From the IMG/VR virus record IMGVR_UViG_3300044647_000866: DNA of 64,000 bases; one strand, given 5' to 3'. This stretch comes from an uncultured virus (IMG/VR IMGVR_UViG_3300044647_000866). Taxonomy: Duplodnaviria; Heunggongvirae; Uroviricota; Caudoviricetes. The notes under the pieces are model-generated. The model saw only the letters and a list, made by a program, of their open reading frames with translations, made no database searches and was not told the DNA's origin. This document shows, piece after piece, positions 36,298 through 61,654 of the stretch (position 1 is the stretch's first letter; the number at the start of each line of letters is the position of its first letter). Both the position numbers and the translations under genes were made by a program.

Positions 36298-39200
36298 ATG
36301 GCCATTGATACTTCATTCCTGTTTAAGCAGACCGGATCGACTCAGCCTGAGAAACGAGCCGCTGCGATACAGGATGCCGCCGCACAGCAGGATGACCAGC
36401 TGATCACGGGCACTCAGCCGTCGTCTATCGACACTAGCTTCCTGTTCAAGGCTCCCGCTCGCGCCGCTATTCCGCCTGAGACAACACCTGAAGAAGTTGC
36501 CGCTGAGCAACCCGGCACGTCTAACCCGCTTTATGGTGCTGCCGCTAGAACAGCAACCATTGCTGGCGAAACTGTCGAGGCCACGAAGCGCGTTGGAGAA
36601 GCTGCTCCTGTATCAGCCTTCCAGCCGGGTATCTCCGGACTTGGCGCTGGGATTAAGCTTGTCGCCCCAACTCTACAGAAGTGGGCAGACGGTCTTCGAG
36701 GCTGGGGAGAGAGCATTGGCTACTCTCCTAGCACTCAGCTAAAAAACATAAGCGACAATCCATTAACTCTTATTCCGTTTATCGCGGAAAGAGTTATCAC
36801 ATCTGTTCCCGATATGGCTGCTGCAGCTTTGGCTACTCCCGTGTATGCCGCTGCTCGCACAAACGAAGTGCTTAACGAGCGCCTCAAGAACGATCAGAAA
36901 ACTCTTGAGGATGCCACGGTTGGTGACGTTGCCACCGCCGCTGGCGTTGCCGCTGTCGAAACTATGTTCGAGCGTTTTGCCACTAACCGCATCTTCAAGA
37001 AACTTCCTGAAGGCGAGGGCTTGTCGATTCCGCGAACCCTCCAAGAGACTGGCGTTCAGGCTGGAACTGAGGGCGTAGAAGAAGCCGCTGCGTACCTTGG
37101 CGGAACAGCTGGCACCAAGGCTGGCGTAAACGTCAACGACCTTGCGGCTAACGTACTTGAGGGCATGATCGTTGGCGGCGGACTTGGCGCAACAACTCAG
37201 GCTGTTAGGGAGATTGCCACCGCGCTCCGGAAGGAGCCTTCTGCCGGCCCCACAACTGCAGAAGCGCAACCGACCCCAGTGGCACCTGTTGGAGAACCCG
37301 CAGCCACAGCCGAAACAACTACTGTTTCACAGCCTAGCACAACTGTTGTTTCTGACGCGCAAGCTGCAGCACCGACTGTTGAGCCTGCTGGAACAGCTGT
37401 TACCCCTGTCGTTACGGATCAAGGGGTTACGGCTCCGGCTCTTGCTGTTGCCGCTGCACCAGTAACAGCTGCTCCCGCAGAGACAGAGGGTGCGGGAATT
37501 ATCTCGACTGCAGACCTCAAGCAGCAGCTCGTCGAGATCGATGCCGAAGCTGCCGCCCGTGCTGCAGAACAGGCTCTGGCCACGACTGAGCTGCCCGAAG
37601 GCCTTACTGTGGATAACTCCGTCACCGAAAACTTCGGGCCGGATGACACACGCTTCGCCGCCTTCGAGTCGCCTACCGACAAGGAGCTGTATGTCCTTGG
37701 CAAGCTGAATCGTCGCCCTGCAAAGACGCCTGAGCTGACGGAGACGGCGCGTCAGCTGACTTCCAAGGTATCTGAGGCTCTGGGTATCCCCGTCGAGGAA
37801 GTCGCCCAGAGGGCGGAGGCGACCCGTGTGGCGACACAGAACGGGTTGTCCGGCGTCCAAGCTGGGGCGGTGTATCGAGTCCCGACAGGGATCACTACGC
37901 CTCCCGTCAGCCCCCTAATGCAGCTTGCGAGCGACCAGATCGGGGAAAAGTTTAGCCTCCCAGAAGGGGAGAAGGTTGTCATCCCCGAAGCGCCGGTTGA
38001 CCCGGTGCGCACTAAGATCGCCTCCGTCATCAAGGATGCGTTCGGGGTGGACGTGGTGTGGGCCAGCCTGCCGAAGGGCGGCAAGGTCAAGACCAACAAG
38101 GGCCGCGAGCTGGTCGCCATCAACGGCGCACGCATTGCCGGCACGAATGCCATCCTGCTCGACGCCAACAACTACAGCTTCCTGAACACGCTGGGCCACG
38201 AGCTGACCCACGTTCTGGAGACTCAGTACCCGCAGCTTTATCAGCAGCTGATAACACTCGCCAAGGCGAAGGTCAGCAAGAAGTTCCAGAACCAGCTTCG
38301 CAAGGAAGTTGCTAACGATGCTGAGTTCAACTCAGAGCTGGTGGCTGAGATGGTCGGCGAGCAATCGACTGATCCGAAGTTCTGGCAGGAAGTGTTCGAC
38401 GCAGCTGGCGATCAGACTTCCGCTCAGGGATTCCTCGATGCGCTGAACAAGATCATCGACCGTATCCTGAGTGCGCTTCAGGGCTACCAGCCGATGGTCG
38501 TCCAGAGCCGCAAGGATGCACTGGCCGTGCGTCAGGCTGCTCAGCAAGCGTTCCAGCAGTGGATCACGGCACGACAACAGGCTGCTCAGCAGGTCGCCGC
38601 AGACCAGCAAGCCGCAGTGCAGGCTGCCGCAGCCGTTACTCGCCCAGCGCCAGCGGTCAATCCGTTCTTGGTCGGCACATCACTAGACCCAAATGCACCC
38701 AAACCGGCGGAGCTTGGCCCACCGAAGGTTCCACCTTCACGGCAGGCTCAGGTCAACATTGGCCAGAAGGGCCGCCGCTTTGTCACCTTTGCCGCTGACC
38801 TCGACAAGGATCTGTTCGAGCTTGGCGCTAAGCTGAAGAAGGCCGCAAAAACGCTGAGCAAGTCTGACCGTGAATCAGCCGACGCTCGTCTCGTTCGGTT
38901 TATGGCCGTCACCGGCCTGCCCCGCGCAGAGATGATCGATGTCGCAAAGAACTATCGAGATGCTGTCGTCAAGGCAGCGGGTGCTGTTCAGGAGGACGGC
39001 ACCTACGAAGCCCCGGCAACCAACATAGGAGAGCGTCGTGCCGTTGAAGAAAGGAAAGTCGAAGAGCGTCGTGAGCCGCAACGTGAGCGAGCTGATGAAC
39101 AAGTACGAGAAGTCCGGCAAGATCGGGAGCAGCCGCCCGTCGAGCAAGCCGAAGGCGCAGAAGCAGGCGGTCGCGATCGCGCTGCAGAAGGCAGGCCGCA

Positions 39201-42200
39201 GCCGGAAGAAGTAGCCGCTGAGGAAGAAGTCGTAAGGGAGCTGCCGCAGTTCTCGCGTAAGCGTCCTGCGGTAGACCCCGACTTCGCCGACAGTGTTGCT
39301 GAAGATGTTGGCCTCAACGCAGAACTATCTGAGGCCACGTCTCTCAAGTACCAGACCGGCAAGTCCGGCGAGGATCAGTTCAACACACCAGTTGTTGGCG
39401 GACTGACCAACACTGTTCTTGAGATTGAGCGTGCCCGTCGAGAAGGCACTCTTGGGCAGCTCGACCTCGACAGCGAGAGCGATCGCAATACTGTTGCGAA
39501 GATGCTTGCCGCCGAAGTTGTTGCTGCTGTTCGTGCCGGCGGTGGCGCTAAGGAGTGGTATGACAAGACCATCCGTCGCACTCTCGCTATGGCATCGCTC
39601 AAGTTTCCTGAGCTTTCCACCGACAAGGAAGCGCAGACCGCATTCCGTCTGTCTGTTGCCATCACTTCGCAAGGCCTGAACGTAGAGGACAACCTCAAGT
39701 TCGCCATGCAGGTGTACGGTGAGTACAGAAAGAGCGGCACCTTCCCGCTCAAGGGGCAGGGCAAGAACGGCGGCGCGATGGTGAGCAACTTCCAGCTTGC
39801 CAATACGCTCATGGAAAAGATGGGCATGGAGCGATTCTCTCGCTTCCTTGAGACTGACTTCGTTGCGTCTGAGTTGAATGCAGTCGGCTTCAACATCGAC
39901 GAACTTGCTGACGAGAAGATCCTTGGCTCGTCTGTGTTCGGCCCGAAGATCGGCTTCGGCTTCTACTCGAATCTCTCTGGCAACTTCGAGCCTGTCACGA
40001 TCGACATGTGGTTCATGCGAACCATTGGCCGCTTGATAGGCAAGCTTCGCGCTTTCGACGCCAAGCTGTTTGCCTCGCAGCGAGACAAGTTCCGTGCAGC
40101 GTTTGCTGTTGAAGGCGTCAACGGCATCTTCATCAATTCCCGCAACATGTCTGGCAGCCGTCTGTTCAGTGCAGACCTTGTGCAGAACGCGGCAACAGAC
40201 GATGACGCAGCTGTTACTTTGGCCCGACTTGTTACCCGTGCGCACGAGCGTGACTTCAAAGTCAATCGCAAGGCCTACGACAACAAGACTCGCGTCAAGT
40301 CATCGCTAGTCAATAACGCGGCCAACATGCTAAAGTCCCTCGACAAGCCGAAGGATGCACCTTCGAGCGGGTCTGAGAGGCGCAACCTACGTGACATTGT
40401 TCGTCAGACAGTCTCCCTTGTTGAGGGTGTTGTCGGCGAGCGTATCCCGCCGGCTTCTATGCAGGCTCTTGTCTGGTATCCAGAGCAGGAGTTGTACAAG
40501 TCGTTTGGCGTGAAGCTTCGTGTAACGAGCCAAGACTATGCCGGTGCAATCCGTAAAATCCTTGAGAAGGAGGGATACAGTGGAAGAGAACTCAGCGCAG
40601 CAGCCGAATCTGGATCAAGAGGCGCACAACGAGTGGCTGGCCAGCCTCTCGAAGCCGAAGATGCTGGAGTTGTCGGACAAGTTGAACAGCCTGATGCTGC
40701 AGAAAGAGCAGGCCGCCAGCTCACCGCAAGAGAGCGTGAGCGACTCCTCGTCTCCGAAGTCATTAAGCGGTATCGACAGAGCAGTGCAGAGGCACAAGGG
40801 TCTTACAAGATCCGAAGCGCAGGAGATGGCCGACGCATTCGGGTTCTGAGTAATGACGCCAAGGCTGAATACAAGCCGGTCATTACTTTCAAGAATGCAC
40901 TTGGAGCCGTAGGCAAGCCGGCTCCCACCATGTACGAGCTGGATGGCGGAGCGCCCTTGTTCCGTCAGGCCATCCAAGACTCGAAGAACAACAGCAAGTT
41001 TGGTGCTGCGGTCTACGTCTACGACGAGGCCGACTACGCCAACATGCGCCTGTTCATCTCTGATGACGGCAAGTCAGGCTTCGCCCTCAAGGGCAATGAC
41101 ATTGTCTCTGTGTTTAGCGGACAGAAGGGATCTGCCAACGCCATGCTGCAGCTTGCTGTGGATCAGGGCGGACAGCGGCTTGATGCCTTCGACACTGTTC
41201 TTCCTGAGCTGTATGCAGACAACGGCTTCAAGGTTGTTGCTCGCGTTAAATGGAATGACGAGTACAGCCCTGAAGGCTGGGACAAGGCGACGTTCGCCAA
41301 GTACAACAACGGCGAGCCTGATGTCGTGTTCATGGTCTATGACCCGGCCAACGCTTCTGAGCTTGGCGGCAAGACCATTGAGAACTACGACGATGGCGTA
41401 GCTGCGCAGGAAGATGCGATCGGCAAGCAGACTATCCAGTTCTCCCGTGTTCGCAGCGAGACAAATGCTGACGGCAAGCAGATTGCCAGCACGCCTGAAT
41501 TCATCCAGAACTTCTGGAACTGGTTCGGCGACAGCAAGATCGTAGACCGCCGTGGCCGCCCAAAGGTCATGTATCACGGCACGATTCCGCCCACTGTTGG
41601 CGCTGAAGAGTTTATCGACCAAGGCATCAGCGTGTTCCGCCGCGGCACTGGTGGCGCGATCTTCGTGTCACCTGACGAGCGAGTTGCGAACACGTACGCT
41701 GGGCCGGGTGGATCTGTGTATCCATTGTATATACGCGCTGAGAATCCGTTCGACTTCGAGAATCCTGATCACGTCAAGCGAGTTCTGGATATCTGGGAGT
41801 CCAATAACGTCGGTATCCGCGAGACTCGTGAGCAGGCCATTGCCAAAGGCAAGTGGCAGATGATCGAGAACGTCGAGATCCAAGACGCCATCAAGCTTGC
41901 CGGCTTCGACAGCTACTACGTGAAGGAGACTGGGGCCAAGAACCTCGCGCTGTACGACCCATCACAGTTGAAGTCAGCTGTTGGGAATGTTGGCGAGTTC
42001 TCGCCTGAGCGTCCTGAGATCCAGTTCTCGAAGGTGCGTCAGGGCCGCAAGTACTGGCTGCCTGAGTTCGGTCGACTGCAGCGTTTGCTGCGTGGCGTGC
42101 AAAACGAAGTGCTTGCCACTGCTCGTGCGCAAAGGGCTGTTGCTGCTCAGGGTGGCGTGCTGACTGACTCGACAGAGATCGAGTCGGCAATGCATCGCAT

Positions 42201-44712
42201 GTATGGCCGCGCCGGAAACCGTCTCGATCGCTTCCGCAAGGACGTAGTCGAGCAGATCCTCAAGCGTGCTTCTGACATGAACGTCAGCCTTGCAGACGTT
42301 GAGCTGTACTTGTACGCCAACCATGCCAAGGAAGCGAACCGTCGCATTGCTTCGATCAATCCGCAGATGCCAGATGGCGGCTCAGGCATGACGAATGCTG
42401 AAGCTGATCAGGTTATGGCAACGCTGCGGCAGGACATGCCACAGTTCCTGCGCACGAAGTCCATCGCAGATGAGATTCAGAACATCACAAAGATGACTCA
42501 GGCTGCGCTGGTCAATGGCGACATTGTCAGCCCTGCTGATTTGGCCGCTTGGAACGCCACGTACAACTACTACGTTCCGCTCAAGACATTCGAGCAGGCT
42601 GACGATCTTGGCCGGGTGACTGGCAATGGCCGGTTTGACCTTGCCAATGCATTCTCGAAGCGTCGACTTGGTCGCAGCAGCAAAGCCGGCGCGATCGTCG
42701 AGAACATCTTGGCGGACTACGAGGAAGCTGTTGTCGCTGTTGAGCGAAACAATGTACGCAAGGCGTGGCTGCAGTTTATCCTGAGCAACAAGGACAGCGA
42801 ACTGTGGCAGGTCAACAAGCCTGTCATGCAGCGTGCGTTCTACAAGAACCCTGTCGAGGAAGTTCGATACCGCCTGACTATCCAGAAGGATGCGGAGACT
42901 CTCCCAGTCCGTGTGGGTGGCGAGGTGTATCACATGGTCATCAAAGACCCTGAGATCCTCGAAGAACTGCAGATGACGAGTGTCCTGTCGCAGTTCCCGG
43001 ATACGATCAAGTCAATCCTTGGCGGCATGAATACGTTTGGCCGCACGCTATCCAAGCTGTGGACTGTGCTGTCGCCGCCGTTCGTGCTGATCAACGCATC
43101 TCGCGACATTCAGACATCGCTGATCAACACCGGCATCGACCAAGGGCTGTGGAGTTCCGCGAAGCTGTTGGCAACACTGCCGAAGGCTGCTTACACAGTG
43201 TGGCGTGCTGAGCGTAACAACGCTTGGACTGGCGACCTGAAACAGTACTACGACATGTATCGTGCTGATGGCGGCAAGACTGGTGCGCTTGATCTGAGGC
43301 AGATCGAAGACCGCCACAGTGATCTGATGTCCATGTATCGCAACGCACAGGCGTCGATAGGTAAGCCACTGACGTACCACCGCCTGACCATGCGGTATCT
43401 GAAGGGCGTAGAAAACTTCATGATGGACATCAACGGTGCCATCGAAGGCGCTGCTCGTGTTGCCGCATACAAGGTCGCAATGGAGAACGGTAAGTCGCGC
43501 ATCCAAGCGACTAACATTGCGAAGGAAATCACGGTCAACTTCAACCGTCGCGGCAAGTGGACTCCGGTGCTGAGCGGAATGTACCTGTTCTTCAACCCTG
43601 CAGTTCAGGGTGCAAAGCGCACGGTGAGCGCTGTGTTCAGCAAGCGTGGCGCTGCTGTCGCAACTGGGCTTGCAACCCTTGGATACTTCATTGCAGAGAT
43701 GGCGGCCTCCGCTGTCGGTGACGATGAGGAGCCGTACTGGGATAAGCCATCAATGCGCCAGACTAAGCTGAAGAACCTTGTGTTCTTCGGGCCGAATGGC
43801 GAGACCTACAATGTCCCGCTGCCGTATGGCTTTGGCTTCTTCGTGAACCTTGGCTATGCGCTTCGTGACCTGAAGAATGGCGCAGACCCGTTAAAGGTCG
43901 GTGCGTTTATGCGAGATTCCGCATCGCTTCATTTCTCGCCGCTTGGCTCGATGGACAACATGGCGACCTTCCTGTCTCCGACGCTCATCGATCCGGCGAT
44001 GGTTCTCATCACTGGCGAGAAGGAGACTGGCCTGCCGCTTATGCCGGAAGACTTCACTGGAGTCACCCCGGACAGCGAGCGGTACTGGAACAACACTCGC
44101 GATACGATGTTCCAGAACGTAACTGCTGCTCTGTATGAGATGACCGGCGGTGGCGCTGGCGGAAAGATGGCTATCGACGTGTCGCCTGAGTCTGTCGAGT
44201 ACATCACGTCGTTCCTGACAGGCGGTGCTGGTACGTTTGTGAAGGATGTCATCAAGACATTCGATGCGATGGCCAACACCGGCACTGCGTCGGCCACTGA
44301 GCAGAACCTGATCCCGATCTTGAAGGCCGTTCACAGGCAGCCCGACGGTCGGTATGACTCCAGCGCGTTCTACGAGAATGCCAAGGAGGCAAAGGAAGCC
44401 GCTCGTGACTTCAATGCGATCATGGAGTCAGAGACCGAAGTGTCCGAAGAGAAGCTTGCCTACGCAGACTCTGTTGCTGGCATGGCCGCACTATCGCGGT
44501 TTGCAGACAAGCAGAAGCGAGCCATCTCAAACCTGCGCCAGCAGGACTTGGACATCCAGCAGGATGAAACTTTAACTAGGGAAGAGAAATATGGACTTCG
44601 TAAAGAAATTGCTGAGCAGATTCGTCAAACCCAAGTTGAGTTCAACGTCGCCTTCTACGCCGAGCGTCGAGCCGCCGAAGCAGAAGAAGCAGAAGGTCAA
44701 GCTGAAGAATAA
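36298..44712 (+). CDS. Giant polyvalent ejection protein, 2804 aa (HExxH, GNAT-like, ART-like, LPD38-like C-terminus)
   Basis: GHELTH; VTIDMW; RLDAFDTVLPELY..NGF; WFGDSKIVD..G.PKVMYHGT...QLKSAVGN.GEF; TVNFNRRG...YLFFNPAVQG...VPLPYGFG. Confidence 0.85.
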   Translation: MAIDTSFLFKQTGSTQPEKRAAAIQDAAAQQDDQLITGTQPSSIDTSFLFKAPARAAIPPETTPEEVAAEQPGTSNPLYGAAARTATIAGETVEATKRVGEAAPVSAFQPGISGLGAGIKLVAPTLQKWADGLRGWGESIGYSPSTQLKNISDNPLTLIPFIAERVITSVPDMAAAALATPVYAAARTNEVLNERLKNDQKTLEDATVGDVATAAGVAAVETMFERFATNRIFKKLPEGEGLSIPRTLQETGVQAGTEGVEEAAAYLGGTAGTKAGVNVNDLAANVLEGMIVGGGLGATTQAVREIATALRKEPSAGPTTAEAQPTPVAPVGEPAATAETTTVSQPSTTVVSDAQAAAPTVEPAGTAVTPVVTDQGVTAPALAVAAAPVTAAPAETEGAGIISTADLKQQLVEIDAEAAARAAEQALATTELPEGLTVDNSVTENFGPDDTRFAAFESPTDKELYVLGKLNRRPAKTPELTETARQLTSKVSEALGIPVEEVAQRAEATRVATQNGLSGVQAGAVYRVPTGITTPPVSPLMQLASDQIGEKFSLPEGEKVVIPEAPVDPVRTKIASVIKDAFGVDVVWASLPKGGKVKTNKGRELVAINGARIAGTNAILLDANNYSFLNTLGHELTHVLETQYPQLYQQLITLAKAKVSKKFQNQLRKEVANDAEFNSELVAEMVGEQSTDPKFWQEVFDAAGDQTSAQGFLDALNKIIDRILSALQGYQPMVVQSRKDALAVRQAAQQAFQQWITARQQAAQQVAADQQAAVQAAAAVTRPAPAVNPFLVGTSLDPNAPKPAELGPPKVPPSRQAQVNIGQKGRRFVTFAADLDKDLFELGAKLKKAAKTLSKSDRESADARLVRFMAVTGLPRAEMIDVAKNYRDAVVKAAGAVQEDGTYEAPATNIGERRAVEERKVEERREPQRERADEQVREVRQDREQPPVEQAEGAEAGGRDRAAEGRPQPEEVAAEEEVVRELPQFSRKRPAVDPDFADSVAEDVGLNAELSEATSLKYQTGKSGEDQFNTPVVGGLTNTVLEIERARREGTLGQLDLDSESDRNTVAKMLAAEVVAAVRAGGGAKEWYDKTIRRTLAMASLKFPELSTDKEAQTAFRLSVAITSQGLNVEDNLKFAMQVYGEYRKSGTFPLKGQGKNGGAMVSNFQLANTLMEKMGMERFSRFLETDFVASELNAVGFNIDELADEKILGSSVFGPKIGFGFYSNLSGNFEPVTIDMWFMRTIGRLIGKLRAFDAKLFASQRDKFRAAFAVEGVNGIFINSRNMSGSRLFSADLVQNAATDDDAAVTLARLVTRAHERDFKVNRKAYDNKTRVKSSLVNNAANMLKSLDKPKDAPSSGSERRNLRDIVRQTVSLVEGVVGERIPPASMQALVWYPEQELYKSFGVKLRVTSQDYAGAIRKILEKEGYSGRELSAAAESGSRGAQRVAGQPLEAEDAGVVGQVEQPDAAERAGRQLTARERERLLVSEVIKRYRQSSAEAQGSYKIRSAGDGRRIRVLSNDAKAEYKPVITFKNALGAVGKPAPTMYELDGGAPLFRQAIQDSKNNSKFGAAVYVYDEADYANMRLFISDDGKSGFALKGNDIVSVFSGQKGSANAMLQLAVDQGGQRLDAFDTVLPELYADNGFKVVARVKWNDEYSPEGWDKATFAKYNNGEPDVVFMVYDPANASELGGKTIENYDDGVAAQEDAIGKQTIQFSRVRSETNADGKQIASTPEFIQNFWNWFGDSKIVDRRGRPKVMYHGTIPPTVGAEEFIDQGISVFRRGTGGAIFVSPDERVANTYAGPGGSVYPLYIRAENPFDFENPDHVKRVLDIWESNNVGIRETREQAIAKGKWQMIENVEIQDAIKLAGFDSYYVKETGAKNLALYDPSQLKSAVGNVGEFSPERPEIQFSKVRQGRKYWLPEFGRLQRLLRGVQNEVLATARAQRAVAAQGGVLTDSTEIESAMHRMYGRAGNRLDRFRKDVVEQILKRASDMNVSLADVELYLYANHAKEANRRIASINPQMPDGGSGMTNAEADQVMATLRQDMPQFLRTKSIADEIQNITKMTQAALVNGDIVSPADLAAWNATYNYYVPLKTFEQADDLGRVTGNGRFDLANAFSKRRLGRSSKAGAIVENILADYEEAVVAVERNNVRKAWLQFILSNKDSELWQVNKPVMQRAFYKNPVEEVRYRLTIQKDAETLPVRVGGEVYHMVIKDPEILEELQMTSVLSQFPDTIKSILGGMNTFGRTLSKLWTVLSPPFVLINASRDIQTSLINTGIDQGLWSSAKLLATLPKAAYTVWRAERNNAWTGDLKQYYDMYRADGGKTGALDLRQIEDRHSDLMSMYRNAQASIGKPLTYHRLTMRYLKGVENFMMDINGAIEGAARVAAYKVAMENGKSRIQATNIAKEITVNFNRRGKWTPVLSGMYLFFNPAVQGAKRTVSAVFSKRGAAVATGLATLGYFIAEMAASAVGDDEEPYWDKPSMRQTKLKNLVFFGPNGETYNVPLPYGFGFFVNLGYALRDLKNGADPLKVGAFMRDSASLHFSPLGSMDNMATFLSPTLIDPAMVLITGEKETGLPLMPEDFTGVTPDSERYWNNTRDTMFQNVTAALYEMTGGGAGGKMAIDVSPESVEYITSFLTGGAGTFVKDVIKTFDAMANTGTASATEQNLIPILKAVHRQPDGRYDSSAFYENAKEAKEAARDFNAIMESETEVSEEKLAYADSVAGMAALSRFADKQKRAISNLRQQDLDIQQDETLTREEKYGLRKEIAEQIRQTQVEFNVAFYAERRAAEAEEAEGQAEE
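39038..39214 (+). CDS. Nested (+1 frame) small basic protein of the PLKKG...QAVAIAL type
   Basis: AGGAG 6 nt before GTG; (M)PLKKGKSKSVVSRNVSELMNKYEKSGKIGSSRPSSKPKAQKQAVAIALQKAGRSRKK*. Confidence 0.72.
   Translation: MPLKKGKSKSVVSRNVSELMNKYEKSGKIGSSRPSSKPKAQKQAVAIALQKAGRSRKK
40580..40849 (+). CDS. Nested (+1 frame) 89-aa protein
   Basis: AAGGAGG 6 nt before GTG; ends IDRAVQRHKGLTRSEAQEMADAFGF. Confidence 0.6.
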   Translation: MEENSAQQPNLDQEAHNEWLASLSKPKMLELSDKLNSLMLQKEQAASSPQESVSDSSSPKSLSGIDRAVQRHKGLTRSEAQEMADAFGF

Positions 44713-48909: not shown

Positions 48910-49135
48910 AACCCCCGCGCATCGTCGGTGACAACGACAGGGTGCGCGGGGTTATACCGGTACTGTGGGATAGCTTGAAACACCGGGCGGGGCGGCGAGG
49001 CTAGCACCCCAGAGCGACAAGGCTGGCGGGTCATGCGACCGACGGGTCAGCGTGTGAAGGCAGATCTAGGATGGGCTAGGTCTGCTCACTCAGGGTCAGA
49101 TCACGAGGCCTCAGTAGTATCCTTCTGGCCTCATA
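48910..49135 (+). ncRNA. Candidate structured RNA (multi-hairpin intergenic region)
   Basis: Stems CCCCGCGCA/TGCGCGGGG, GCTGGC/GTCAGC enclosing GGTC/GACC, GCAGATCTAG/CTAGGTCTGC and GAGGCC/GGCCTC. Confidence 0.45.
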
Positions 49136-54335: not shown

Positions 54336-54359
54336 AAAAAAGGGGGGCCGAAGCCCCCC
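54336..54359 (-). terminator. Intrinsic terminator of the AAA/vWA operon
   Basis: Minus strand GGGGGGC-TTCG-GCCCCCC-TTTTTT. Confidence 0.85.
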
Positions 54360-54364
54360 GCAAG

Positions 54365-56344
54365 TTAGGCTACCCGCCGGGTGTCACCGGCCTTCAACTG
54401 CTCGATCACCTTACGCAGAGCGATTGAGTGCAGGTCGCCAGCGTGGCGTACCGCCGCACCAAACTCGTACGCCTGACTGAGCAGGTCATTCGACGTGCCG
54501 ATGCCGAAGGCGATGACCTCGACATCGAACATCGCCTTGCTGCAGCGCGTCATCTGCAGCACCTTCTGGGACTCGCCGAAGCCGTCGGTGATAACGATCA
54601 CCAGACGCCGGCCCGACTTACGCTGCGACAGTTGTTGAACAACTGCGCGTAGGCAGGTGTAGTCCGGGGTGCCGCCGCTCGCGATCTGTCCCATCCTCAC
54701 GAAGTGATGAGGGACTTGGCCAGCACGATCCTCGAAGCGCTTGGCGACCACGAGGACGCCGGCACGGGACGAGTCTCTATCATTGCCGCCCAGCAGATTC
54801 CCGAACATGTCGCGACCGCCGCCGTACTGGACGTGGTCGTAGGTGCTGGGTGATCGGAAGCCAACCACCTCACACTCAGCGCCAGCCGTCTCTGCGGCCT
54901 GAGCGATCGTCCAAGCAAGTTGGGCGGCGTTCTTGGCGTTCTGTCCGGCCATCGAGCCAGACATGTCGACCATGATGGACACCGAAGTCTCGATGCCCTC
55001 GCTGACCCAGCGGCGCTTGAAGACCGACTCGCTACCGCTCAGCATGCGCGGCGCACGGCGGCCATCGAACCGGCCACTGACCGACCCGCTGTCCCAGCCG
55101 CAACGCTCAGGAGCCTTGAGGATCTGGTACAGACGCGATTTCAGCGCCGGCAACACCGTCTTCGACAGCGTACGCGCTGCTCGACGCAGTCCGGCATCGT
55201 CCTTCTGCATCGATGTCCAGCGGCGCATTTCACTGCGGCCCGGAGGCGGGGCAGACGCCAACGAGATCGGCACCATCGTGCGCTCACGGATACGCTTGAA
55301 CACGTCATCGATGTCAGGCTCAGGCGACTTGCACAACTGTTCGTCGTACTGTTCCTGCCTGTCCTCGTACGGCTCATCGCCGCCGTTGTTGGTGACAGCC
55401 TCGCCGTCCTCGCCTTCGTCGTCTCCGGACTCGATAGGCATAGGAGCGCTGTCGGCCTCGCCGGCTTCAGTCGTCTCAGACATCTCAGCCTCAGCCTGAG
55501 CGAGTTCAGCAGCATCGCTGTCGCCGTCTTCGGAACCGAACGACTCGTCGGAGTCTCCCGACTCAGAGTCGTCGTCTTCCGACTGTTGTGGCTGTTGTGA
55601 CTGTTGCTGCTCCCACGGCTGCCGGCTGTCGGCACTCTGGTCGACAGGCTCGATGGCCTTCCAGCCTTCGAGGAACTGCATCGCCAGCCCCAGCGCTTGG
55701 CCAGTGCCGTCGCGATCCAGCGACAGGCTTGGCATCGCGTCAGCGACCGCCTTGTACAGGCTGCGCTTCGGCTCCGGGATTCGGTCGAGCAGTTTCTTGG
55801 CGAAACCGTTGCCGTCACCCAGCGCGGCCCGACTGATCAGCGCGAGCGCGAATGGCGCACTGTTGATCGATGTCGGGTTGAACTTGTCATCGAGTTTGGA
55901 CGTGAACTGCGACATCAGTCGCTTGAACCCAGACCGCGCACCGTTTGCGCGACCGGACGCAATCACCGCATGCTCGATGCGACCGTCCTCGATTCCGTTC
56001 CACAGATTCCGCAGCAGAGAATACTCCGGGCCTGAGTACCGGAGTAGGCTGCTTTGGTCGGTGTACGCGACGTGCCCGACCTCGTGGCTGGTGTAGGCCG
56101 CGATCAGGTCTGCCTCGATGCGCGACACGAACGAGTTGTCGGGCATGCTGGGGTAGTTGATGCGGTAGGTCATCACCCTGCTACGGTCGGAAGTGAGCGC
56201 CCACTGGGCGAAGGCAATCTCGCCGCCGAAGGTGACAGTGCCGGCCCCTGAGAACACGGCATCGCTGCCCAGCAGCGCTCGCAGTTGCTTCTGCGAGTGG
56301 ACAAGTGCCGCGGCCTTGACGGTCGCCGATTTAATCTTTTGCAT
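54365..56344 (-). CDS. CobT-like protein: HExxH domain, acidic linker, vWA domain
   Basis: HEVGH...NGIEDGRIE; D/E/S-rich linker; MIDAS DMSGSM, GGTP and VITDG. Confidence 0.85.
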   Translation of the reverse strand: MQKIKSATVKAAALVHSQKQLRALLGSDAVFSGAGTVTFGGEIAFAQWALTSDRSRVMTYRINYPSMPDNSFVSRIEADLIAAYTSHEVGHVAYTDQSSLLRYSGPEYSLLRNLWNGIEDGRIEHAVIASGRANGARSGFKRLMSQFTSKLDDKFNPTSINSAPFALALISRAALGDGNGFAKKLLDRIPEPKRSLYKAVADAMPSLSLDRDGTGQALGLAMQFLEGWKAIEPVDQSADSRQPWEQQQSQQPQQSEDDDSESGDSDESFGSEDGDSDAAELAQAEAEMSETTEAGEADSAPMPIESGDDEGEDGEAVTNNGGDEPYEDRQEQYDEQLCKSPEPDIDDVFKRIRERTMVPISLASAPPPGRSEMRRWTSMQKDDAGLRRAARTLSKTVLPALKSRLYQILKAPERCGWDSGSVSGRFDGRRAPRMLSGSESVFKRRWVSEGIETSVSIMVDMSGSMAGQNAKNAAQLAWTIAQAAETAGAECEVVGFRSPSTYDHVQYGGGRDMFGNLLGGNDRDSSRAGVLVVAKRFEDRAGQVPHHFVRMGQIASGGTPDYTCLRAVVQQLSQRKSGRRLVIVITDGFGESQKVLQMTRCSKAMFDVEVIAFGIGTSNDLLSQAYEFGAAVRHAGDLHSIALRKVIEQLKAGDTRRVA

Positions 56345-56353
56345 GACGATTCC

Positions 56354-57571
56354 TCACGCCGCTTCGGGCGCATTTGGGGAGTTGACATCGACCACGTCGG
56401 GCGTGACGACAGGCGGCGCGAGACCAGCCATCGCGGCCTCGATACCAGCGTCCGACATGTTCGCTTTCCATATCTGCTGCAGGACTTCACGCGATTCAGG
56501 CGATGCTCGATTGACCATCGTCTGCTCGAATGCCAGTCGCGGCGGCACCTTGTCGGCCAGCGCCTCAGCAAGGTAGAACGCCTCGCGCAGCGTCGGGACA
56601 TGGTCGAGTTGGCTAGACTGACCAGCCTGCCGCATGACCGACAGCATGCTCACGATCAGCGTCGACAGGTTGCTGTGGACGCCAGTGCGGCTGCTGATGA
56701 CCTGCGCTTCGTCCGCCGATTGCAGGTAACTGAACTCGATCGTGCGAGCGAAGCGGTTGACGAACGCGACGTTCATCTCGCGCACCCCGGCGTACATGCC
56801 GGTGTAGTCGCCGCGACCGTTCGAGTTGTCCGCAGCCATGAACACCACGCCCGGAGCCTTGCGAATCACCTCGCCAGTCTCAGGCACCGTGACCACGCCC
56901 TCCGGCTCCAGCGGCGCATGCAGCGCCGACAGGTACTCAGGTCGAGCGAACGACACCTCGTCGAGCAGGATGACTGCACCGGGGCGCACGAAACCGCGCA
57001 GGATGATGCCGTGCTGGTAGACGGTCGAGCCGTTCTTGACACGCTCGCCGCCGATGAACTCGTAGCGCTCAGCACCGCTGTCGAACGACACGCGGACGAA
57101 GGCGCGACCAAGGCCAGCGCACAGGTTGCGCACGAACTCCGTCTTGCCGGTGCCGGCAGGGCCAGCCAGCCACACGTTGCGGCCACGGGCAACAGCCGTC
57201 ACAGCAGTGAACAGTTGCTCCGCGTTGAACTTGTACAACGGGTCGAGCGCGGGGGCTGCAGGGTCGTTGTAAACATCGACCTCGTACGCACCGTGCTTGC
57301 CGCGGATGCCGAAGACCTCGCGCAGCGACTTGCGAGCGACCACCTCGACGTTGGGCACCTCGACCGCCGCAGAAGGCGTAGGAGCCGCGATCGGTGCGAG
57401 GGAGCCTGAGATCAGGCCCATCGAGGAAATCGCCTCAGCGACCTTCTCCTGCGGCAGAGCGGCCACTTGCTCGATGAAGTCCTGCTTGGACTTGCGAGCG
57501 TAGTCGCCAGCGGAGCCGGACACCCGGCGAACCAACTCGACGAGTTGGGCCTTGGACATTTGGTTGATCAT
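56354..57571 (-). CDS. CobS/MoxR-like AAA+ ATPase
   Basis: GPAGTGKT, ILLDE, AADN..G.G...Y.G...N.AF.NRF; start moved to ATG 57571 with GAGG SD. Confidence 0.88.
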   Translation of the reverse strand: MINQMSKAQLVELVRRVSGSAGDYARKSKQDFIEQVAALPQEKVAEAISSMGLISGSLAPIAAPTPSAAVEVPNVEVVARKSLREVFGIRGKHGAYEVDVYNDPAAPALDPLYKFNAEQLFTAVTAVARGRNVWLAGPAGTGKTEFVRNLCAGLGRAFVRVSFDSGAERYEFIGGERVKNGSTVYQHGIILRGFVRPGAVILLDEVSFARPEYLSALHAPLEPEGVVTVPETGEVIRKAPGVVFMAADNSNGRGDYTGMYAGVREMNVAFVNRFARTIEFSYLQSADEAQVISSRTGVHSNLSTLIVSMLSVMRQAGQSSQLDHVPTLREAFYLAEALADKVPPRLAFEQTMVNRASPESREVLQQIWKANMSDAGIEAAMAGLAPPVVTPDVVDVNSPNAPEAA

Positions 57572-57591
57572 GGGAGCCTCACAGTTGTTGT

Positions 57592-57663
57592 TGATTGTCT
57601 GACCATCGTCAGGCAGCGCATCACGCTGCGACAGGGACGCCTCACGGCGAGCCTGTTTCGGTC
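57592..57663 (-). ncRNA. Hammerhead ribozyme, type II (one-U insertion variant)
   Basis: Minus strand GACC-GAAA-CAGG...CCUG-UC^GCAGCG-UGAUG-CGCUGC-CUGACGA-U-GGUC; loop I can pair with downstream AUCA; predicted cut after nt 57630. Confidence 0.85.
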
Positions 57664-57842
57664 TATCGGGCCATCTCCTTGATGCCCTTGATCCGGCCAT
57701 CGAAGTGGCCGAGTTGGTAGACGTAGGTGATCTGCGATCGAACGCAGGATTCAGACACCACGTAGCCATCTTTCGATGCCTGCTCGATGTACTTGAACAG
57801 TCGCTCGACAATCCGATCGACTTCTTCGTTTTCGTGTTTCAT
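57663..57842 (-). CDS. Hypothetical 59-aa protein (absent from ORF track)
   Basis: MKHENEEVDRIVERLFKYIEQASKDG...; GAGGAGG SD; stop abuts the ribozyme. Confidence 0.65.
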   Translation of the reverse strand: MKHENEEVDRIVERLFKYIEQASKDGYVVSESCVRSQITYVYQLGHFDGRIKGIKEMAR

Positions 57843-57946
57843 TGCGAATCCTCCTCATCCAGCCAACCGAAAGCGATGTATCCGGCCAGTGCGAACACGG
57901 CCAGTGCGAGCGCCATGCGTGGCGCGTAGAACAGGAATGCGTCCAT
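57839..57946 (-). CDS. 35-aa membrane peptide
   Basis: MDAFLFYAPRMALALAVFALAGYIAFGWLDEEDSQ*; GAGGTGA SD; ATGA coupling. Confidence 0.6.
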   Translation of the reverse strand: MDAFLFYAPRMALALAVFALAGYIAFGWLDEEDSQ

Positions 57947-57954
57947 CGATCACC

Positions 57955-58209
57955 TCACAGGTCGAACAGCGAGACGCTGGTGGAGCGCACTTCCGACACG
58001 ACTTCGGCGAGTTGCTCGTCGGTCAGAATCTTGCGCACCTTGGTCGAATCGATTCGGCTCGAAGCGCGTTCAGAGACGACGGCGCGGAAGACCTCGCCGC
58101 GGTACTCGCCAGCGCCAGAGTCGCGCAGGATTTTCTTGATGGCCTCAGCCTGCTGGTTGAGGGCGGAGATTTGTGCGTTGAGCGCACCCAGTTGGTCGAC
58201 GATCTGCAT
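57955..58209 (-). CDS. Hypothetical phage protein (N-terminal coiled-coil)
   Basis: IVDQLGALNAQISAL...EYRGEVFRAVV; GAGG SD. Confidence 0.72.
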   Translation of the reverse strand: MQIVDQLGALNAQISALNQQAEAIKKILRDSGAGEYRGEVFRAVVSERASSRIDSTKVRKILTDEQLAEVVSEVRSTSVSLFDL

Positions 58210-58227
58210 ATAGCCTCACAGTTGTGT

Positions 58228-58289
58228 TGATGTTGTTGGTCTCGTCAGTGGCAGCATCACTGCCAGACCGGCTCACGCCGGTTTCGACC
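58228..58289 (-). ncRNA. Hammerhead ribozyme, type II (canonical core)
   Basis: Minus strand GGUC-GAAA-CCGGC-GUGA-GCCGG-UC^UGGCAG-UGAUG-CUGCCA-CUGACGA-GACC; loop UGAUG complementary to downstream CAUCA; predicted cut after nt 58266. Confidence 0.93.
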
Positions 58290-58291
58290 TG

Positions 58292-58606
58292 TCAGAAGTT
58301 GTAGTCGTAGAACTTGACCGGCTCGTCGGACAGGCCATAGCGCCGCTTCGCGGCATCCTTCCAGCCGTGCTTGCCAAGGCGGATGCGGACAACGCGACCG
58401 TCCGGGTCGCTCTTGATCAGCCACTGCTGGCTGCTCTGGTTGACCACCGTGCCGAAGAAGCCGCCGGGGACAAAGTCAGGCTTCCACGAGGGGTCGCGCT
58501 CAGCCTTCATGGCGCGTATTTCGAGCGTCTTGTCGCTCACGCGCCGCACGATCTCGAAAGGGTTCACGTCGCTGTAGCCGTAGTGGTTGGCGTAGTTCAT
58601 GTTCAT
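58292..58606 (-). CDS. Hypothetical early phage protein
   Basis: YSDVNPFEIVRRVSDKT...FVPGGF...P.KFYDYNF; GGAG SD. Confidence 0.75.
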   Translation of the reverse strand: MNMNYANHYGYSDVNPFEIVRRVSDKTLEIRAMKAERDPSWKPDFVPGGFFGTVVNQSSQQWLIKSDPDGRVVRIRLGKHGWKDAAKRRYGLSDEPVKFYDYNF

Positions 58607-58867
58607 CTCCAGTTGTTGTTAACAGTTGTGACTCAGTGCAGCGTCCTAAGCGAGGGCGCTCTACTCAGTCGCGAGATTGATTCTCCGGTTCGTTGGGCAT
58701 CGTCAGACTTTCGGGCGGCTGCTGTACTTGCAGGTCATTGCCTTCAACCCTACGGCTTCACCGATGCTTTAGGCCGGACTCCGTCTCAGGGAGCCGCCGG
58801 GCTGCTTGCGCTCATCCGGCACCAGAACCTTTGTTTGGGTGGCCCGTCTGGGAGGCCAGTGGTGCGT

Positions 58868-58896
58868 ATCCTGAACAGTTCCACAGTTGTTGTCAA
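58868..58896 (-). promoter_or_regulatory. Promoter of the leftward operon
   Basis: TTGACA-17-CAGGAT; perfect -35, weak -10. Confidence 0.55.
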
Positions 58897-58956
58897 CACT
58901 TGTTTCTGACAAATGTCGAAATAGGTGATTTCCCCTAGGAAAATAGGAGTTCCGAG

Positions 58957-59151
58957 ATGATGAAGGGCAAAATGCACGGCAAGAAGCACGGTTCGAAGCA
59001 CGGGCGCAGCGAGATGCGAGCGCTGAAGCGTGGCGGTGCGAGCAAGGCTGTTGTGGCCGAAGAGGCCGCGGAGTACGGCATGAAGCATGGCGGCATGGTC
59101 GGCAGCGGCTGCGGTGGATACCGCGGCAAGCAGGACTACGGCAAGCGCTGA
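58957..59151 (+). CDS. Small basic G/K/H-rich protein
   Basis: AGGAG SD; MKHGGMV motif. Confidence 0.65.
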   Translation: MMKGKMHGKKHGSKHGRSEMRALKRGGASKAVVAEEAAEYGMKHGGMVGSGCGGYRGKQDYGKR

Positions 59152-59300
59152 TGCCCGGACTGTACGAGAACATTTGGAAAAAGCGCCGCCGCATCGCCGC
59201 AGGAAGCGGGGAATCGATGCGCAAGCCCGGAACTAAGAGCGCACCCAGCGCTGCAGACTTCCGGAAGGCCTCTAAGACAGCGAAGCGCGGCAAGAAGTGA
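59151..59300 (+). CDS. Small basic protein, 49 aa (absent from ORF track)
   Basis: MPGLYENIWKKRRRIAAGSGESMRKPGTKSAPSAADFRKASKTAKRGKK*; TGATG coupling. Confidence 0.72.
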   Translation: MPGLYENIWKKRRRIAAGSGESMRKPGTKSAPSAADFRKASKTAKRGKK

Positions 59301-59917
59301 GCGAGGGTGAGGCAGTGAGTCAGACCAAGCGTGAGGAAAAACGCCGCGCCGCAAGGGAGCGGAAGGACGCGATCCAGCAGCAGGAGTTGTCCATCGAGAG
59401 GGAGAGAGAGCAGGCAGCCTTCAAGGCACTGCAGGAGTCCAGACAGAAGGGAATCATGGGGAGACCCAGTTCCTACACAGACGAGAGGGCAGACGAACTC
59501 TGCACATGGATCGCACAGGGGAACAGCCTGCGCAGTTTCTGCAAGATCCACGGGATGGAAGCCCAGACGGTGTACCGGTGGATGCGGGAGCGCCCCGACT
59601 TCCAGCAACGCTACGCCCGCGCACACGAGGATCGTGCCGACAGTCTGGCCGACGAGATGTGCGACATCGCCGACGAGGTGGCCGCCAACGGGGGCAGCAT
59701 CGAGGCCGTACAGGCCGCCCGACTGCGGATCGACACCCGCAAGTGGATTGCCGCCAAGTTGCGACCGGGCAGGTGGGGGGAGGTGCAGGCACCCAAGGCG
59801 CAGACCGCCGTCACGTTCAAGATCGGACTGCCCCTCATGGACAGGGGTGGGGGTGGAATCACAATAGACGCTACCCCTGTTGCTGAGGCGCTCCCAGACG
59901 GGGCAGAGGCGGCCTAA
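59297..59917 (+). CDS. terS: Terminase small subunit (Sf6 gp1-like)
   Basis: GRPSSYT....DE.C..IA.G.SLRS.C...TVYRW...F...YARA...IADE...RLRIDTRKW.AAKL.P. Confidence 0.85.
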   Translation: MSEGEAVSQTKREEKRRAARERKDAIQQQELSIEREREQAAFKALQESRQKGIMGRPSSYTDERADELCTWIAQGNSLRSFCKIHGMEAQTVYRWMRERPDFQQRYARAHEDRADSLADEMCDIADEVAANGGSIEAVQAARLRIDTRKWIAAKLRPGRWGEVQAPKAQTAVTFKIGLPLMDRGGGGITIDATPVAEALPDGAEAA

Positions 59918-60271
59918 TAGCGGATCGCGCACTCCTTTAATGGCATGGCAGACCCCCCTCCGGCCTGCCGTCCAGCGGCGGCATCCGGCCCCCGCCAGCG
60001 GCCCATCGAGCGCGACGGGGGGTGGCTTTGGTTCCACCACACATACCTACTCACACGCACTGGTCGACTCCGGTCGTGACCCCCTGCTGGCCACTGAGCT
60101 GCAGGCCGGGGGGCTATGTTGGCCGGCTACAAAATTTTTTTGCGGCTGCCCTTTAGGCGGTCGATGTACCCAATCGGTCACTGGGCACCCTCCTCATCGC
60201 CCAAAGTCAGGTCGCCTCCCCTGACGGTAGTGACGCGGGATGTCGTAACCCGCACTTACTAGGGGGTTCGC

Positions 60272-60574
60272 ATGATTCCGAAAGAGTTCTCGATCATGGG
60301 CTGCACGGTGACTGTCGAGATCCTCAGTGACGAGGAGTGGCAGCACGAGGGGGCGGTCGGGTTGTATGACCCGTCCCGTCACAGCATCAAGCTGTTGAAG
60401 TCAAATCAGCAGATGATGGAACACACGTACTTTCATGAGCTGGTGCATTGCATCCTGCATACGATCGGCAGAACAAAGCTGTCTGATGATGAGGAGCTGG
60501 TGGACATGGTCGCAGGACTGTTACATCAGTCTGTTAAGACAGCTGTGTATCCGAACAACAAAAAGGGCAAATGA
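60272..60574 (+). CDS. Small zincin-like metallopeptidase-fold protein
   Basis: GLYD.....I.L...HTYFHELVHCIL...EELVD. Confidence 0.7.
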   Translation: MIPKEFSIMGCTVTVEILSDEEWQHEGAVGLYDPSRHSIKLLKSNQQMMEHTYFHELVHCILHTIGRTKLSDDEELVDMVAGLLHQSVKTAVYPNNKKGK

Positions 60575-60577
60575 GGC

Positions 60578-61654
60578 ATGGTTAGAAAATTTAGTGATGA
60601 GGAGCTGTTGGCTTCTCTTGAGCGCAACCGGTATGTGAGATCTGAGACTGCTCTTGAGCTGGGGATCTCTGTCAGGAACCTGATCATGCATATCGGCAGG
60701 CTGAAGGCGGCTGGGGTAAAAATCCCTGACACGTCTTACCCGATCGGGCATCAGACCCGCAGCTTCGAGGACAAGAAGCAGCAGTTCGAGATCAAGGAGC
60801 TGCCGGACGACGACGTCTCCGTCGAGGAGCTGGTTCAGATCCGCAAGCGGCAGTTCGCTGCCAAGAAGAGCCATGAAGAGGCGGCCAAGCTCATCCCGGT
60901 CAAGATCAAGATTGATGGCGCTGTAGGCCTCCTGCACTTCGGTGACCCGCACGTCGACGACGACGGCACGGACATTGCCGCCTTGGAGCGCCACACCAAG
61001 CTGGTGTCGGACACGCCGGGGTTGTTTGCCTGCAACGTGGGCGACACCCTGAACAACTGGACGGGCCGGTTGGCCCGGTTGTACGGCGAGCAGGCTACGT
61101 CAGCGGCGCAGGCATGGCGTCTGGCGGAATGGTTCGTCGGACGCTGCGACTGGCTGTACATGATTGGGGGAAACCACGACCTGTGGTCTGGCGCTGGAGA
61201 CCCGCTGAAGTGGATCGCAAAGCAGCAAAACGCCTTGTACAAATCCTCAGAGGCACGCATAGCCTTGAGGTTTCCAAATGGGCAAGAGGTGCGTGTGAAC
61301 GCACGCCACGATCATGTCGGCTCCTCGATATGGAACCCAGCCCACGGGCCGATGAAGGCCGCGATCATGGGCACGCGAGATCACCTGTACGTCGCCGGAC
61401 ATAAACACGAGTCGGCGTACTCAGTGCTGAAAGACCCCATCAGCGGGATCACGATGCATGCACTGAAGGTTTCGAGCTACAAGATCTACGACCGTTTCGC
61501 AAAGGAGCGCGGGTTCAGGGACAATACGCTCAGTCCTTGTGCGCTGACTGTGATTAACCCATCCCTTCCGAATTCGCACCCAGACCTGATCAAGGTCTTC
61601 TGGGAACCGGAGGAAGGCGTCAACTATCTTAACTTCTTGCGGAAGAAGAAATAA
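60578..61654 (+). CDS. Calcineurin-like metallophosphoesterase with N-terminal HTH
   Basis: GDPH, GD, GNHD, RHDH and GHKH metal-binding motifs in order. Confidence 0.82.
   Translation: MVRKFSDEELLASLERNRYVRSETALELGISVRNLIMHIGRLKAAGVKIPDTSYPIGHQTRSFEDKKQQFEIKELPDDDVSVEELVQIRKRQFAAKKSHEEAAKLIPVKIKIDGAVGLLHFGDPHVDDDGTDIAALERHTKLVSDTPGLFACNVGDTLNNWTGRLARLYGEQATSAAQAWRLAEWFVGRCDWLYMIGGNHDLWSGAGDPLKWIAKQQNALYKSSEARIALRFPNGQEVRVNARHDHVGSSIWNPAHGPMKAAIMGTRDHLYVAGHKHESAYSVLKDPISGITMHALKVSSYKIYDRFAKERGFRDNTLSPCALTVINPSLPNSHPDLIKVFWEPEEGVNYLNFLRKKK

Follow-up and report, generated by a model that had tools for sequence, protein, structure and literature searches.

The window analysed here, the whole of a 64,000-nucleotide (nt) stretch of DNA from an uncultured virus (Caudoviricetes; IMG/VR record IMGVR_UViG_3300044647_000866), carries on its minus strand a row of genes that runs from about position 60040 to a terminator-like hairpin at 54359-54342 and is punctuated by two type II hammerhead ribozyme motifs, which we call HH1 and HH2. 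Along the minus strand the order is gene A, a conserved hairpin, gene B, HH1, genes C, D and E, HH2, gene F and gene G. Gene A (58769-60040; 423 codons), the apparent first gene of the operon, has no family match; gene B (58292-58606; 104 codons) matches phrog_19789, of unknown function, and its TGA lies 2 nt before HH1 (58238-58289). The three small genes that follow are also without family match: gene C (57955-58209; 84 codons), the first open reading frame (ORF) of the middle piece, gene D (57839-57946; 35 codons) and gene E (57663-57842; 59 codons), the final base of whose TAG is at the same time the first G of HH2 (57601-57663) and part of its stem II. Directly 3′ of HH2 stands gene F (56354-57571; 405 codons), encoding a CobS-like ATPase of the AAA_5 family (PF07728, E 4.4e-15; phrog_249, E 1e-48), followed by gene G (54365-56344; 659 codons) for a CobT-like VWA protein (PF11775, E 4.3e-06; phrog_1576, E 9.3e-28). 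The closing hairpin (54342-54359, minus strand) has seven G-C pairs and then a T run; it is the single strong terminator and stands at the end of the operon; between the genes, the minus strand showed no sigma-70-like promoter.

The window belongs to a phage, as it encodes a Phage_capsid_3 protein, two SU10-type adaptors, a tail-tip protein, a large polyvalent protein and a phage lysozyme. A 55.6 kb IMG/VR record, rated complete, is identical to it across 1.4 kb around HH1 and HH2, and the DNA runs that contain the stretch are labelled as lake water metagenomes. By capsid protein, the closest cultured phages are the Pseudomonas phages KPP25 and phiR18 (53% identity), the Aeromonas phage phiA008 and the Acidovorax phage AP1, the hosts of which are in every case Gram-negative Proteobacteria.

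Both HH1 and HH2 lie on the coding strand of this operon and are hammerhead motifs of type II. Read 5′ to 3′, HH1 consists of GGUC, GAAA, stem III, the GUC cut site, stem I, CUGACGA and GACC, and HH2 of GACC, GAAA, an interrupted stem III, the GUC cut site, stem I, CUGACGA, an extra U and GGUC. In both, the core strand C3-U4-G5-A6-N7-G8-A9 reads CUGACGA, GAAA is followed by a stem III that closes with an A-U pair (A15.1-U16.1) and then by the GUC triplet, and loops close both stem I and stem III while stem II is open, which is the type II permutation. Stem III of HH1 has six pairs (CCGGC-GUGA-GCCGG, with the loop GUGA), as has stem I of either motif (UGGCAG-UGAUG-CUGCCA in HH1, GCAGCG-UGAUG-CGCUGC in HH2), the loop being UGAUG each time. 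The G10.1-C11.1 pair adjoins the core in HH1; in HH2 the extra U is found between A9 and G10.1. Each motif leads into a CA-rich leader with the Shine-Dalgarno word GAGG: after HH1 the leader occupies 58210-58237 (GAGG at 58217-58214) up to the ATG of gene C at 58209-58207, and after HH2 it occupies 57572-57600 (GAGG at 57580-57577) up to the ATG of the CobS-like gene at 57571-57569. The motifs are 575 nt apart and enclose genes C, D and E. Cleavage is predicted after C58266 in HH1 (58266/58265) and after C57630 in HH2 (57630/57629). The original prediction, made from the letters alone, had described two type II hammerheads on the coding strand, each beginning at or 2 nt past a stop codon and ending just ahead of the following Shine-Dalgarno word, and this description holds, each motif filling the gap between a stop codon and the leader with its Shine-Dalgarno word: the core, the three helices, the descriptor matches and the compensatory changes in relatives all agree with it, our recount gives the same cuts and the same 636-nt middle piece (58265-57630), and the swapped stem II (GGUC/GACC in one motif, GACC/GGUC in the other) is real covariation.

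The minimum-energy fold is the hammerhead for both isolated motifs, 52 nt for HH1 and 63 nt for HH2, and HH1 retains it with up to 20 nt of downstream RNA. With a custom-made strict descriptor, which demands the hammerhead core and three uninterrupted stems, the two strands of the window gave two matches, HH1 and, only when a 1-nt insertion was allowed, HH2, and each of 20 mononucleotide shuffles gave none; a model built from the family (R1) likewise has HH1 and HH2 as its sole matches in the window. A looser pattern (GAAA, 8-38 nt, CTGANGA) was set aside as uninformative, its seven window matches comparing with 5.1 expected and HH2 not being caught. The Rfam models, which had been named alongside the original prediction as a check, gave a divided answer: in a search of 1.3 kb, RF02276 was the top family for both motifs (HH1 26.7 bits, E 0.007; HH2 20.6 bits, E 0.28), but both scores fall below its gathering score of 37, and routine annotation therefore misses HH1 and HH2. 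Searches of the whole window with Rfam, at the gathering threshold and in E-value mode, returned neither motif and no ribozyme, the gathering threshold gave no ribozyme on 18 related loci, and the E-value mode returned nothing for window positions 58500-61200.

The conservation of the fold was assessed in two sets of relatives. A search of IMG/VR with the CobS-like protein led to 27 loci, and the first set, A1, comprises ten distinct hammerheads from the window and from contigs with the shared CobS-like gene at 78-100% identity, in which the hammerheads occupy the same places as in the window. The members of A1 were chosen by a descriptor demanding at least four, four and three uninterrupted pairs, and with that qualification 97.5% of 160 pair cells are paired, both sides have changed in 11 of the 16 pairs and one side only in none. 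The covariation score of the set was reached by none of 500 shuffles. For the second set, A2, IMG/VR was scanned for a 17-nt word made of the 3′ core strand, GACC and AACAAC; this gave 44 loci, 12 of which were left out as they are in contigs already studied, leaving 32 loci outside the window lineage. The motif is found in 20 of these, with 23 matches (one cut by the locus end) and 19 distinct sequences. Here 99.3% of 290 pair cells are paired and both sides have changed in 10 of the 12 pairs that make up stems I and III and in 10 of 16 pairs overall, numbers to be read with stem II fixed by the search pattern and the alignment fitted to the model. The core is intact in all ten A1 relatives and in the 22 complete ones of A2, and compensatory changes are seen in all three stems. 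Taken together, these sequence comparisons make the hammerhead fold very hard to doubt.

The surroundings of the motif are equally regular. Among 27 distinct complete motifs from the two sets, 21 start 0-3 nt past the stop codon that ends an ORF 50 or more codons long, and one more, at a locus edge, cannot be judged. A start codon opening at least 30 codons lies 13-31 nt past stem II in all 27, although the codon taken in three of them is a GTG within the leader, and the real ATG probably follows some 10 nt later. The spacer between motif and start codon is CA-rich and contains a Shine-Dalgarno word, and the ORFs downstream are mostly small (49-128 codons), in agreement with the description of such clusters in PMC6155905. 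The family thus has a fixed layout of stop codon, ribozyme, CA-rich leader, Shine-Dalgarno word and start codon.

Most type II members are characterized by a pseudoknot of at least four pairs between loop I and the tail immediately 3′ of stem II, and the original prediction had noted a downstream complement of loop I in both motifs. The complements are present in the window (CAUCA at 58232-58228 for HH1, with five pairs, and AUCA for HH2, with four), but they do not co-vary across the 27 family members. Compared with its own 30-nt tail, loop I has a mean best Watson-Crick match of 2.74 across the 27 motifs, against 2.85 for permuted tails, and 1666 of 2000 permutations were at least equal to the real tails; in close relatives, loop I is altered (UGAGG, UCACG, UCAUG) and the tail is not. 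There being no excess over permuted tails, the pseudoknot finds no support as a family feature. What is conserved is a U-N-A-N-G loop (U in 27 of 27, A in 26, G in 25) beside an AACAAC-type tail, which allows for another contact; the loop may make a different contact, or none. According to the part of PMC3088659 that deals with this interaction, the pseudoknot is used by only about 40% of hammerheads.

HH1 and HH2 resemble the RF02276 consensus in their type II topology, in the core of CUGANGA, GAAA and UH and in the closed stems I and III, and they differ from it in a stem II of four pairs rather than about two, in a loop I of 5 nt rather than a longer one, in the AACAAC tail without co-varying pseudoknot and in their scores under the gathering cut-off. 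The motifs form a phage subfamily, with a four-pair stem II, a U-N-A-N-G loop I and an AACAAC tail but no co-varying pseudoknot, that is missed by the Rfam threshold.

Judged from sequence, the best reading of the locus, and the one towards which we lean on balance, is that the operon RNA probably cuts itself into pieces that are separately stable and translatable. The minus strand would be transcribed as one operon, from about 60040 to the terminator at 54359-54342, and during transcription each motif of some 52-63 nt would fold and cut itself after C58266 and after C57630, constitutively and with no protein needed. Hammerhead cleavage leaves a 5′-OH and a 2′,3′-cyclic phosphate. The RNA upstream of a cut would thus end in the stem III hairpin with the cyclic phosphate, and the RNA downstream would begin with a 5′-OH on the stem I hairpin, followed by the unstructured CA-rich leader, the Shine-Dalgarno word and the start codon. 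The cuts would split A-B, C-D-E and F-G, the last being the CobS/CobT-like pair, into separate mRNAs, each with its own stability and with a ribosome-binding site freed of upstream RNA, in the manner of a natural ribozyme insulator. In Gram-negative Proteobacteria, a 5′-OH end evades the 5′-monophosphate-dependent entry of RNase E, and in a Gram-negative host the predicted ends would slow both the 5′-end-dependent attack of RNase E and 3′ exonucleases. The location of HH1 and HH2 on the same strand as the operon genes supports operon cutting. What the sequences show is the motifs, their covariation and the regular order from stop codon to start codon; the cleavage, and its effect on stability and translation, are what we infer; HH1 likely cleaves, and cleavage by HH2 appears less certain because of its extra U and a competing hairpin.

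Cutting of a polycistronic phage RNA between genes has a precedent in phage T7, the early polycistronic mRNA of which is cut by RNase III into stable monocistronic pieces ending in hairpins; there, however, the enzyme is a host protein and the ends are 5′-phosphate and 3′-OH. Clustered phage hammerheads, and the proposal that a long message is cut by them, were already published in 2011: in the portions of Perreault et al. (PMC3088659) devoted to these clusters, multiple hammerheads flank genes or short gene blocks in prophages, three tandem arrangements cleave in vitro and one in vivo in Escherichia coli, and spliced or circular products are named as alternatives and were undetected. Our case shares with those clusters the neighbouring hammerheads along a phage operon's coding strand, the small non-conserved genes and the variation of the flanked genes, and the same processing hypothesis is proposed in those portions of the paper; it differs in coming from an uncultured freshwater phage, in having two motifs, known from sequence, around three small ORFs, and in the CobS/CobT-like pair. 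As in such clusters, there are at least two close motifs on the gene strand, a short block flanked by them, and phage hallmark genes. The part of PMC8782182 concerned with Desulfovibrio vulgaris records, by cyPhyRNA-seq, in vivo cleavage of three hammerheads of type II that neighbour hypothetical and phage-like genes; host and loci are others than here, and that part contains no operon-level analysis of layout. For the HHphage motif of haloviruses HF1/HF2, as summarized in PMC3088659, a mapped 5′ end is within three nucleotides of the cut site. Like HH1 and HH2, that hammerhead lies a few nucleotides upstream of a start codon on a polycistronic phage transcript; unlike them, it is a single motif at the head of an operon, its virus is archaeal, and its variant core requires high salt (PMC3088659, same passage). 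RiboJ, in the account that PMC6206723 gives of its design, is also a hammerhead 5′ of a ribosome-binding site that strips the upstream RNA context and raises downstream expression, but it was engineered from a satellite-RNA hammerhead with an added hairpin and is no natural phage element.

Several observations weigh against operon cutting. Both Rfam scores are under the cut-off, as described above. In the energy model, HH1 with 30 nt of downstream RNA prefers an alternative fold with the Shine-Dalgarno region (-28.9 against -24.3), and in HH2 with at least 10 nt of downstream RNA a CUGAC/GUCAG hairpin displaces stem II (-33.7 against -29.7 kcal/mol). With the usual type II pseudoknot unsupported in the family, cutting at cellular Mg2+ may be slow. 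Small parts of the stretch occur in six RNA libraries, four of which were examined; the sequences are assembled contigs from relatives 90-99% alike, which carry no strand or end information and are not proof of transcription. Two of them, X15 record 4 and X17 record 17, are continuous and uncut across HH2, and the latter, a 3.6-kb contig from a riverine RNA library, is also continuous across its relative's copy of HH1, which means that some uncut RNA or contaminating DNA was present; such contigs speak neither for nor against cleavage, and no weight is given to gaps in their cover. More distant relatives (66-70% CobS identity) keep this operon; their junctions between genes are short, and no ribozyme precedes the CobS-like gene: with model R1, none was found upstream of the gene at 12 loci (the junctions being read in seven), and none in the three near-complete or complete records. 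The cut is thus not essential to the operon. Finally, under the rules set out in the relevant section of PMC3088659, a mispair adjoining the core would lead to rejection unless activity is shown, and in HH2 the extra U lies beside the core.

This last point leads to the alternative that fares best, doubtful in our view but to be taken seriously, in which HH2 is a weakened or dead allele and the operon RNA is cut once, at HH1, into two mRNAs; a weaker HH2 would by itself mean that the outcome may be two mRNAs and not three. The extra U between A9 and G10.1 argues for it, as do the preference of the energy model for the CUGAC/GUCAG hairpin over stem II and the lower Rfam score of HH2 (20.6 bits), and among the 13 IMG/VR contigs with a motif at the HH2 place, six have the extra U and seven do not. 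Yet the remaining core and every stem of HH2 are intact, and with the U allele in six separate contigs besides the window it is not a one-off error. An extra U at the A9/G10.1 position is, moreover, tolerated in viroid hammerheads; De la Pena and Flores are said to have described, in 2001, natural viroid hammerheads with an extra residue at this position.

A different explanation, rather unlikely in our view, is that the combination of stop codon, ribozyme, CA-rich leader, Shine-Dalgarno word and start codon is mainly a movable gene joint, spread or exchanged by recombination among related phages, that persists by keeping newly joined genes expressed, with separation of the mRNAs as a by-product. 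The two explanations are not exclusive, and the unit does appear to travel. HH1 stands between genes B and C in the window and in the related loci L007 and L009, whereas in L011 and L006 it follows a small unrelated gene and lies upstream of B, which is there joined to C via a 12-13-nt spacer (L011:1967-2364 and L006:620-1177 compared with window 58207-58606); the order of L011 recurs in the RNA-library contig X17 record 17. There are 128 extra nt between gene B and HH1 in L007, and L021 has three motifs and one 5′-truncated remnant. The shifting of HH1 and the absence of the motif from more distant relatives of the operon indicate that the unit appears at, and vanishes from, the junctions between genes. 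What precedes the same leader words may be a hammerhead, a hairpin or neither, and the flanked genes are, in what Perreault et al. (PMC3088659) present on this point, not constant. On the other hand, the stems co-vary and the core is intact in the relatives of 78-100% identity, where the motif keeps its place upstream of the CobS-like gene, which argues for selection on the RNA fold and not only on a DNA joint, and no repeats or mobility genes are found beside the units. The remnant in L021 (1797-1844, plus strand; 23.2 bits with model R1) sits between two complete hammerheads and retains stem I, the core strand, the stem II strand and the leader, but neither GAAA nor stem III.

Rather than constitutive, the cut could be conditional, which we regard as improbable: it would be gated by translation of the upstream ORF, whose stop codon touches or overlaps stem II, or by alternative folds in which the Shine-Dalgarno region pairs with the ribozyme, and through either gate cutting would be linked with downstream translation. 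In the 21 of 27 motifs that start 0-3 nt past a stop codon, a ribosome that terminates would sit over stems II and III; the lower-energy alternative folds engage the Shine-Dalgarno region in HH1 and the core strand in HH2; and regulated cleavage of phage hammerheads is raised in the discussion of these elements in PMC3088659. Tight gene packing is, however, general in phages, there is no ligand pocket or extra domain, and the pairing with the Shine-Dalgarno word is not conserved, since relatives differ in these words and in their stem III sequences. Masking of the Shine-Dalgarno word by the ribozyme was rejected as a family feature on the same differences in words and stems.

Very improbable and unsupported, finally, is a circle: the 636-nt middle RNA (58265-57630), the ends of which the original prediction called suitable for RtcB circularisation, would be closed by a host RtcB-type ligase into a circular mRNA with three small phage ORFs. 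Its predicted ends are chemically suited (5′-OH and 2′,3′-cyclic phosphate) and, with GACC at both, could not rebuild stem II, so that a circle would not re-cut itself. Against a circle, the ends cannot rebuild a hammerhead (GACC against GACC), nothing brings them together, HH2 may be weak, no back-joined contig was seen among the examined RNA-library contigs, the sole joint that goes back is a gene-order difference present as DNA in L011, and the sections of PMC3088659 on similar clusters report no circular or spliced products as detected. Were it true, the phage would encode a circular messenger produced jointly by two ribozymes and a repair ligase of the host.

Operon cutting remains the reading we prefer. 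A search of 185,579 bacterial and archaeal species genomes for prophage copies with the 17-nt pattern gave at least 120 stretches, and none of the 80 listed matches the model; GGTCGAAA was found upstream of the pattern in none of 82 occurrences among the matches listed. Some 277 chance matches are expected in 596 Gb, and we take the bacterial and archaeal matches to be chance. The cultured relatives KPP25, AP1, phiA008 and Itty13 gave no convincing motif in any of the four, the best scores being 15-16 bits, and blastn of HH1 against cultured phages gave weak partial matches only. One of these, in a Ralstonia phage, is not a hammerhead. Another, in Streptomyces phage Tefunt, is a classical type II hammerhead of another subfamily, and the classical pseudoknot form is seen in this phage. 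Tefunt (NC_054665.1) has two such hammerheads (L201:597-663 and 864-945), with a short stem II and AGCC-type tails, one of which starts where a 43-codon gene ends, while the second falls within the gene annotated next. A ready laboratory system was not found among the examined cultured relatives and species genomes.

The roles of prokaryotic hammerheads were considered still open in a 2017 review (PMC6155905). HH1 and HH2 leave that question unanswered but add a clean natural comparison set, consisting of near-identical phages with HH1 before different genes, two alleles of HH2 and relatives with no ribozyme. Should the cut prove to govern how stable the flanking messages are or how they are translated, the arrangement would be a natural counterpart of the ribozyme insulators of synthetic biology.

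Some further features of the window can be mentioned. The hairpin between genes A and B (58630-58670, minus strand) is an interrupted one of 17 pairs that lies directly 5′ of the CA-rich leader of gene B, the spot where other junctions have a hammerhead. It is conserved in L006, L007, L011, L013 and L015, and one of its pairs has changed on both sides; mismatches occur in the copy of the window, and Rfam has no match for it. A host double-strand RNase may use it as a site. On the plus strand, the Betaproteobacteria-1 RNA motif (RF02932) is matched over its full length at 48914-49031, scoring 90.2 bits where the gathering score is 49.4; within a phage genome, this hints at a betaproteobacterial host. 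A 311-codon ORF in the region of the tail genes (25013-25948, plus strand) has weak Hint and AXH-type matches under the Pfam cut-offs. The large polyvalent protein is encoded by a 2804-codon ORF (36298-44712, plus strand) with ART-PolyVal (ADP-ribosyltransferase) and LPD38 domains, and is of a kind found in some phages and conjugative elements.

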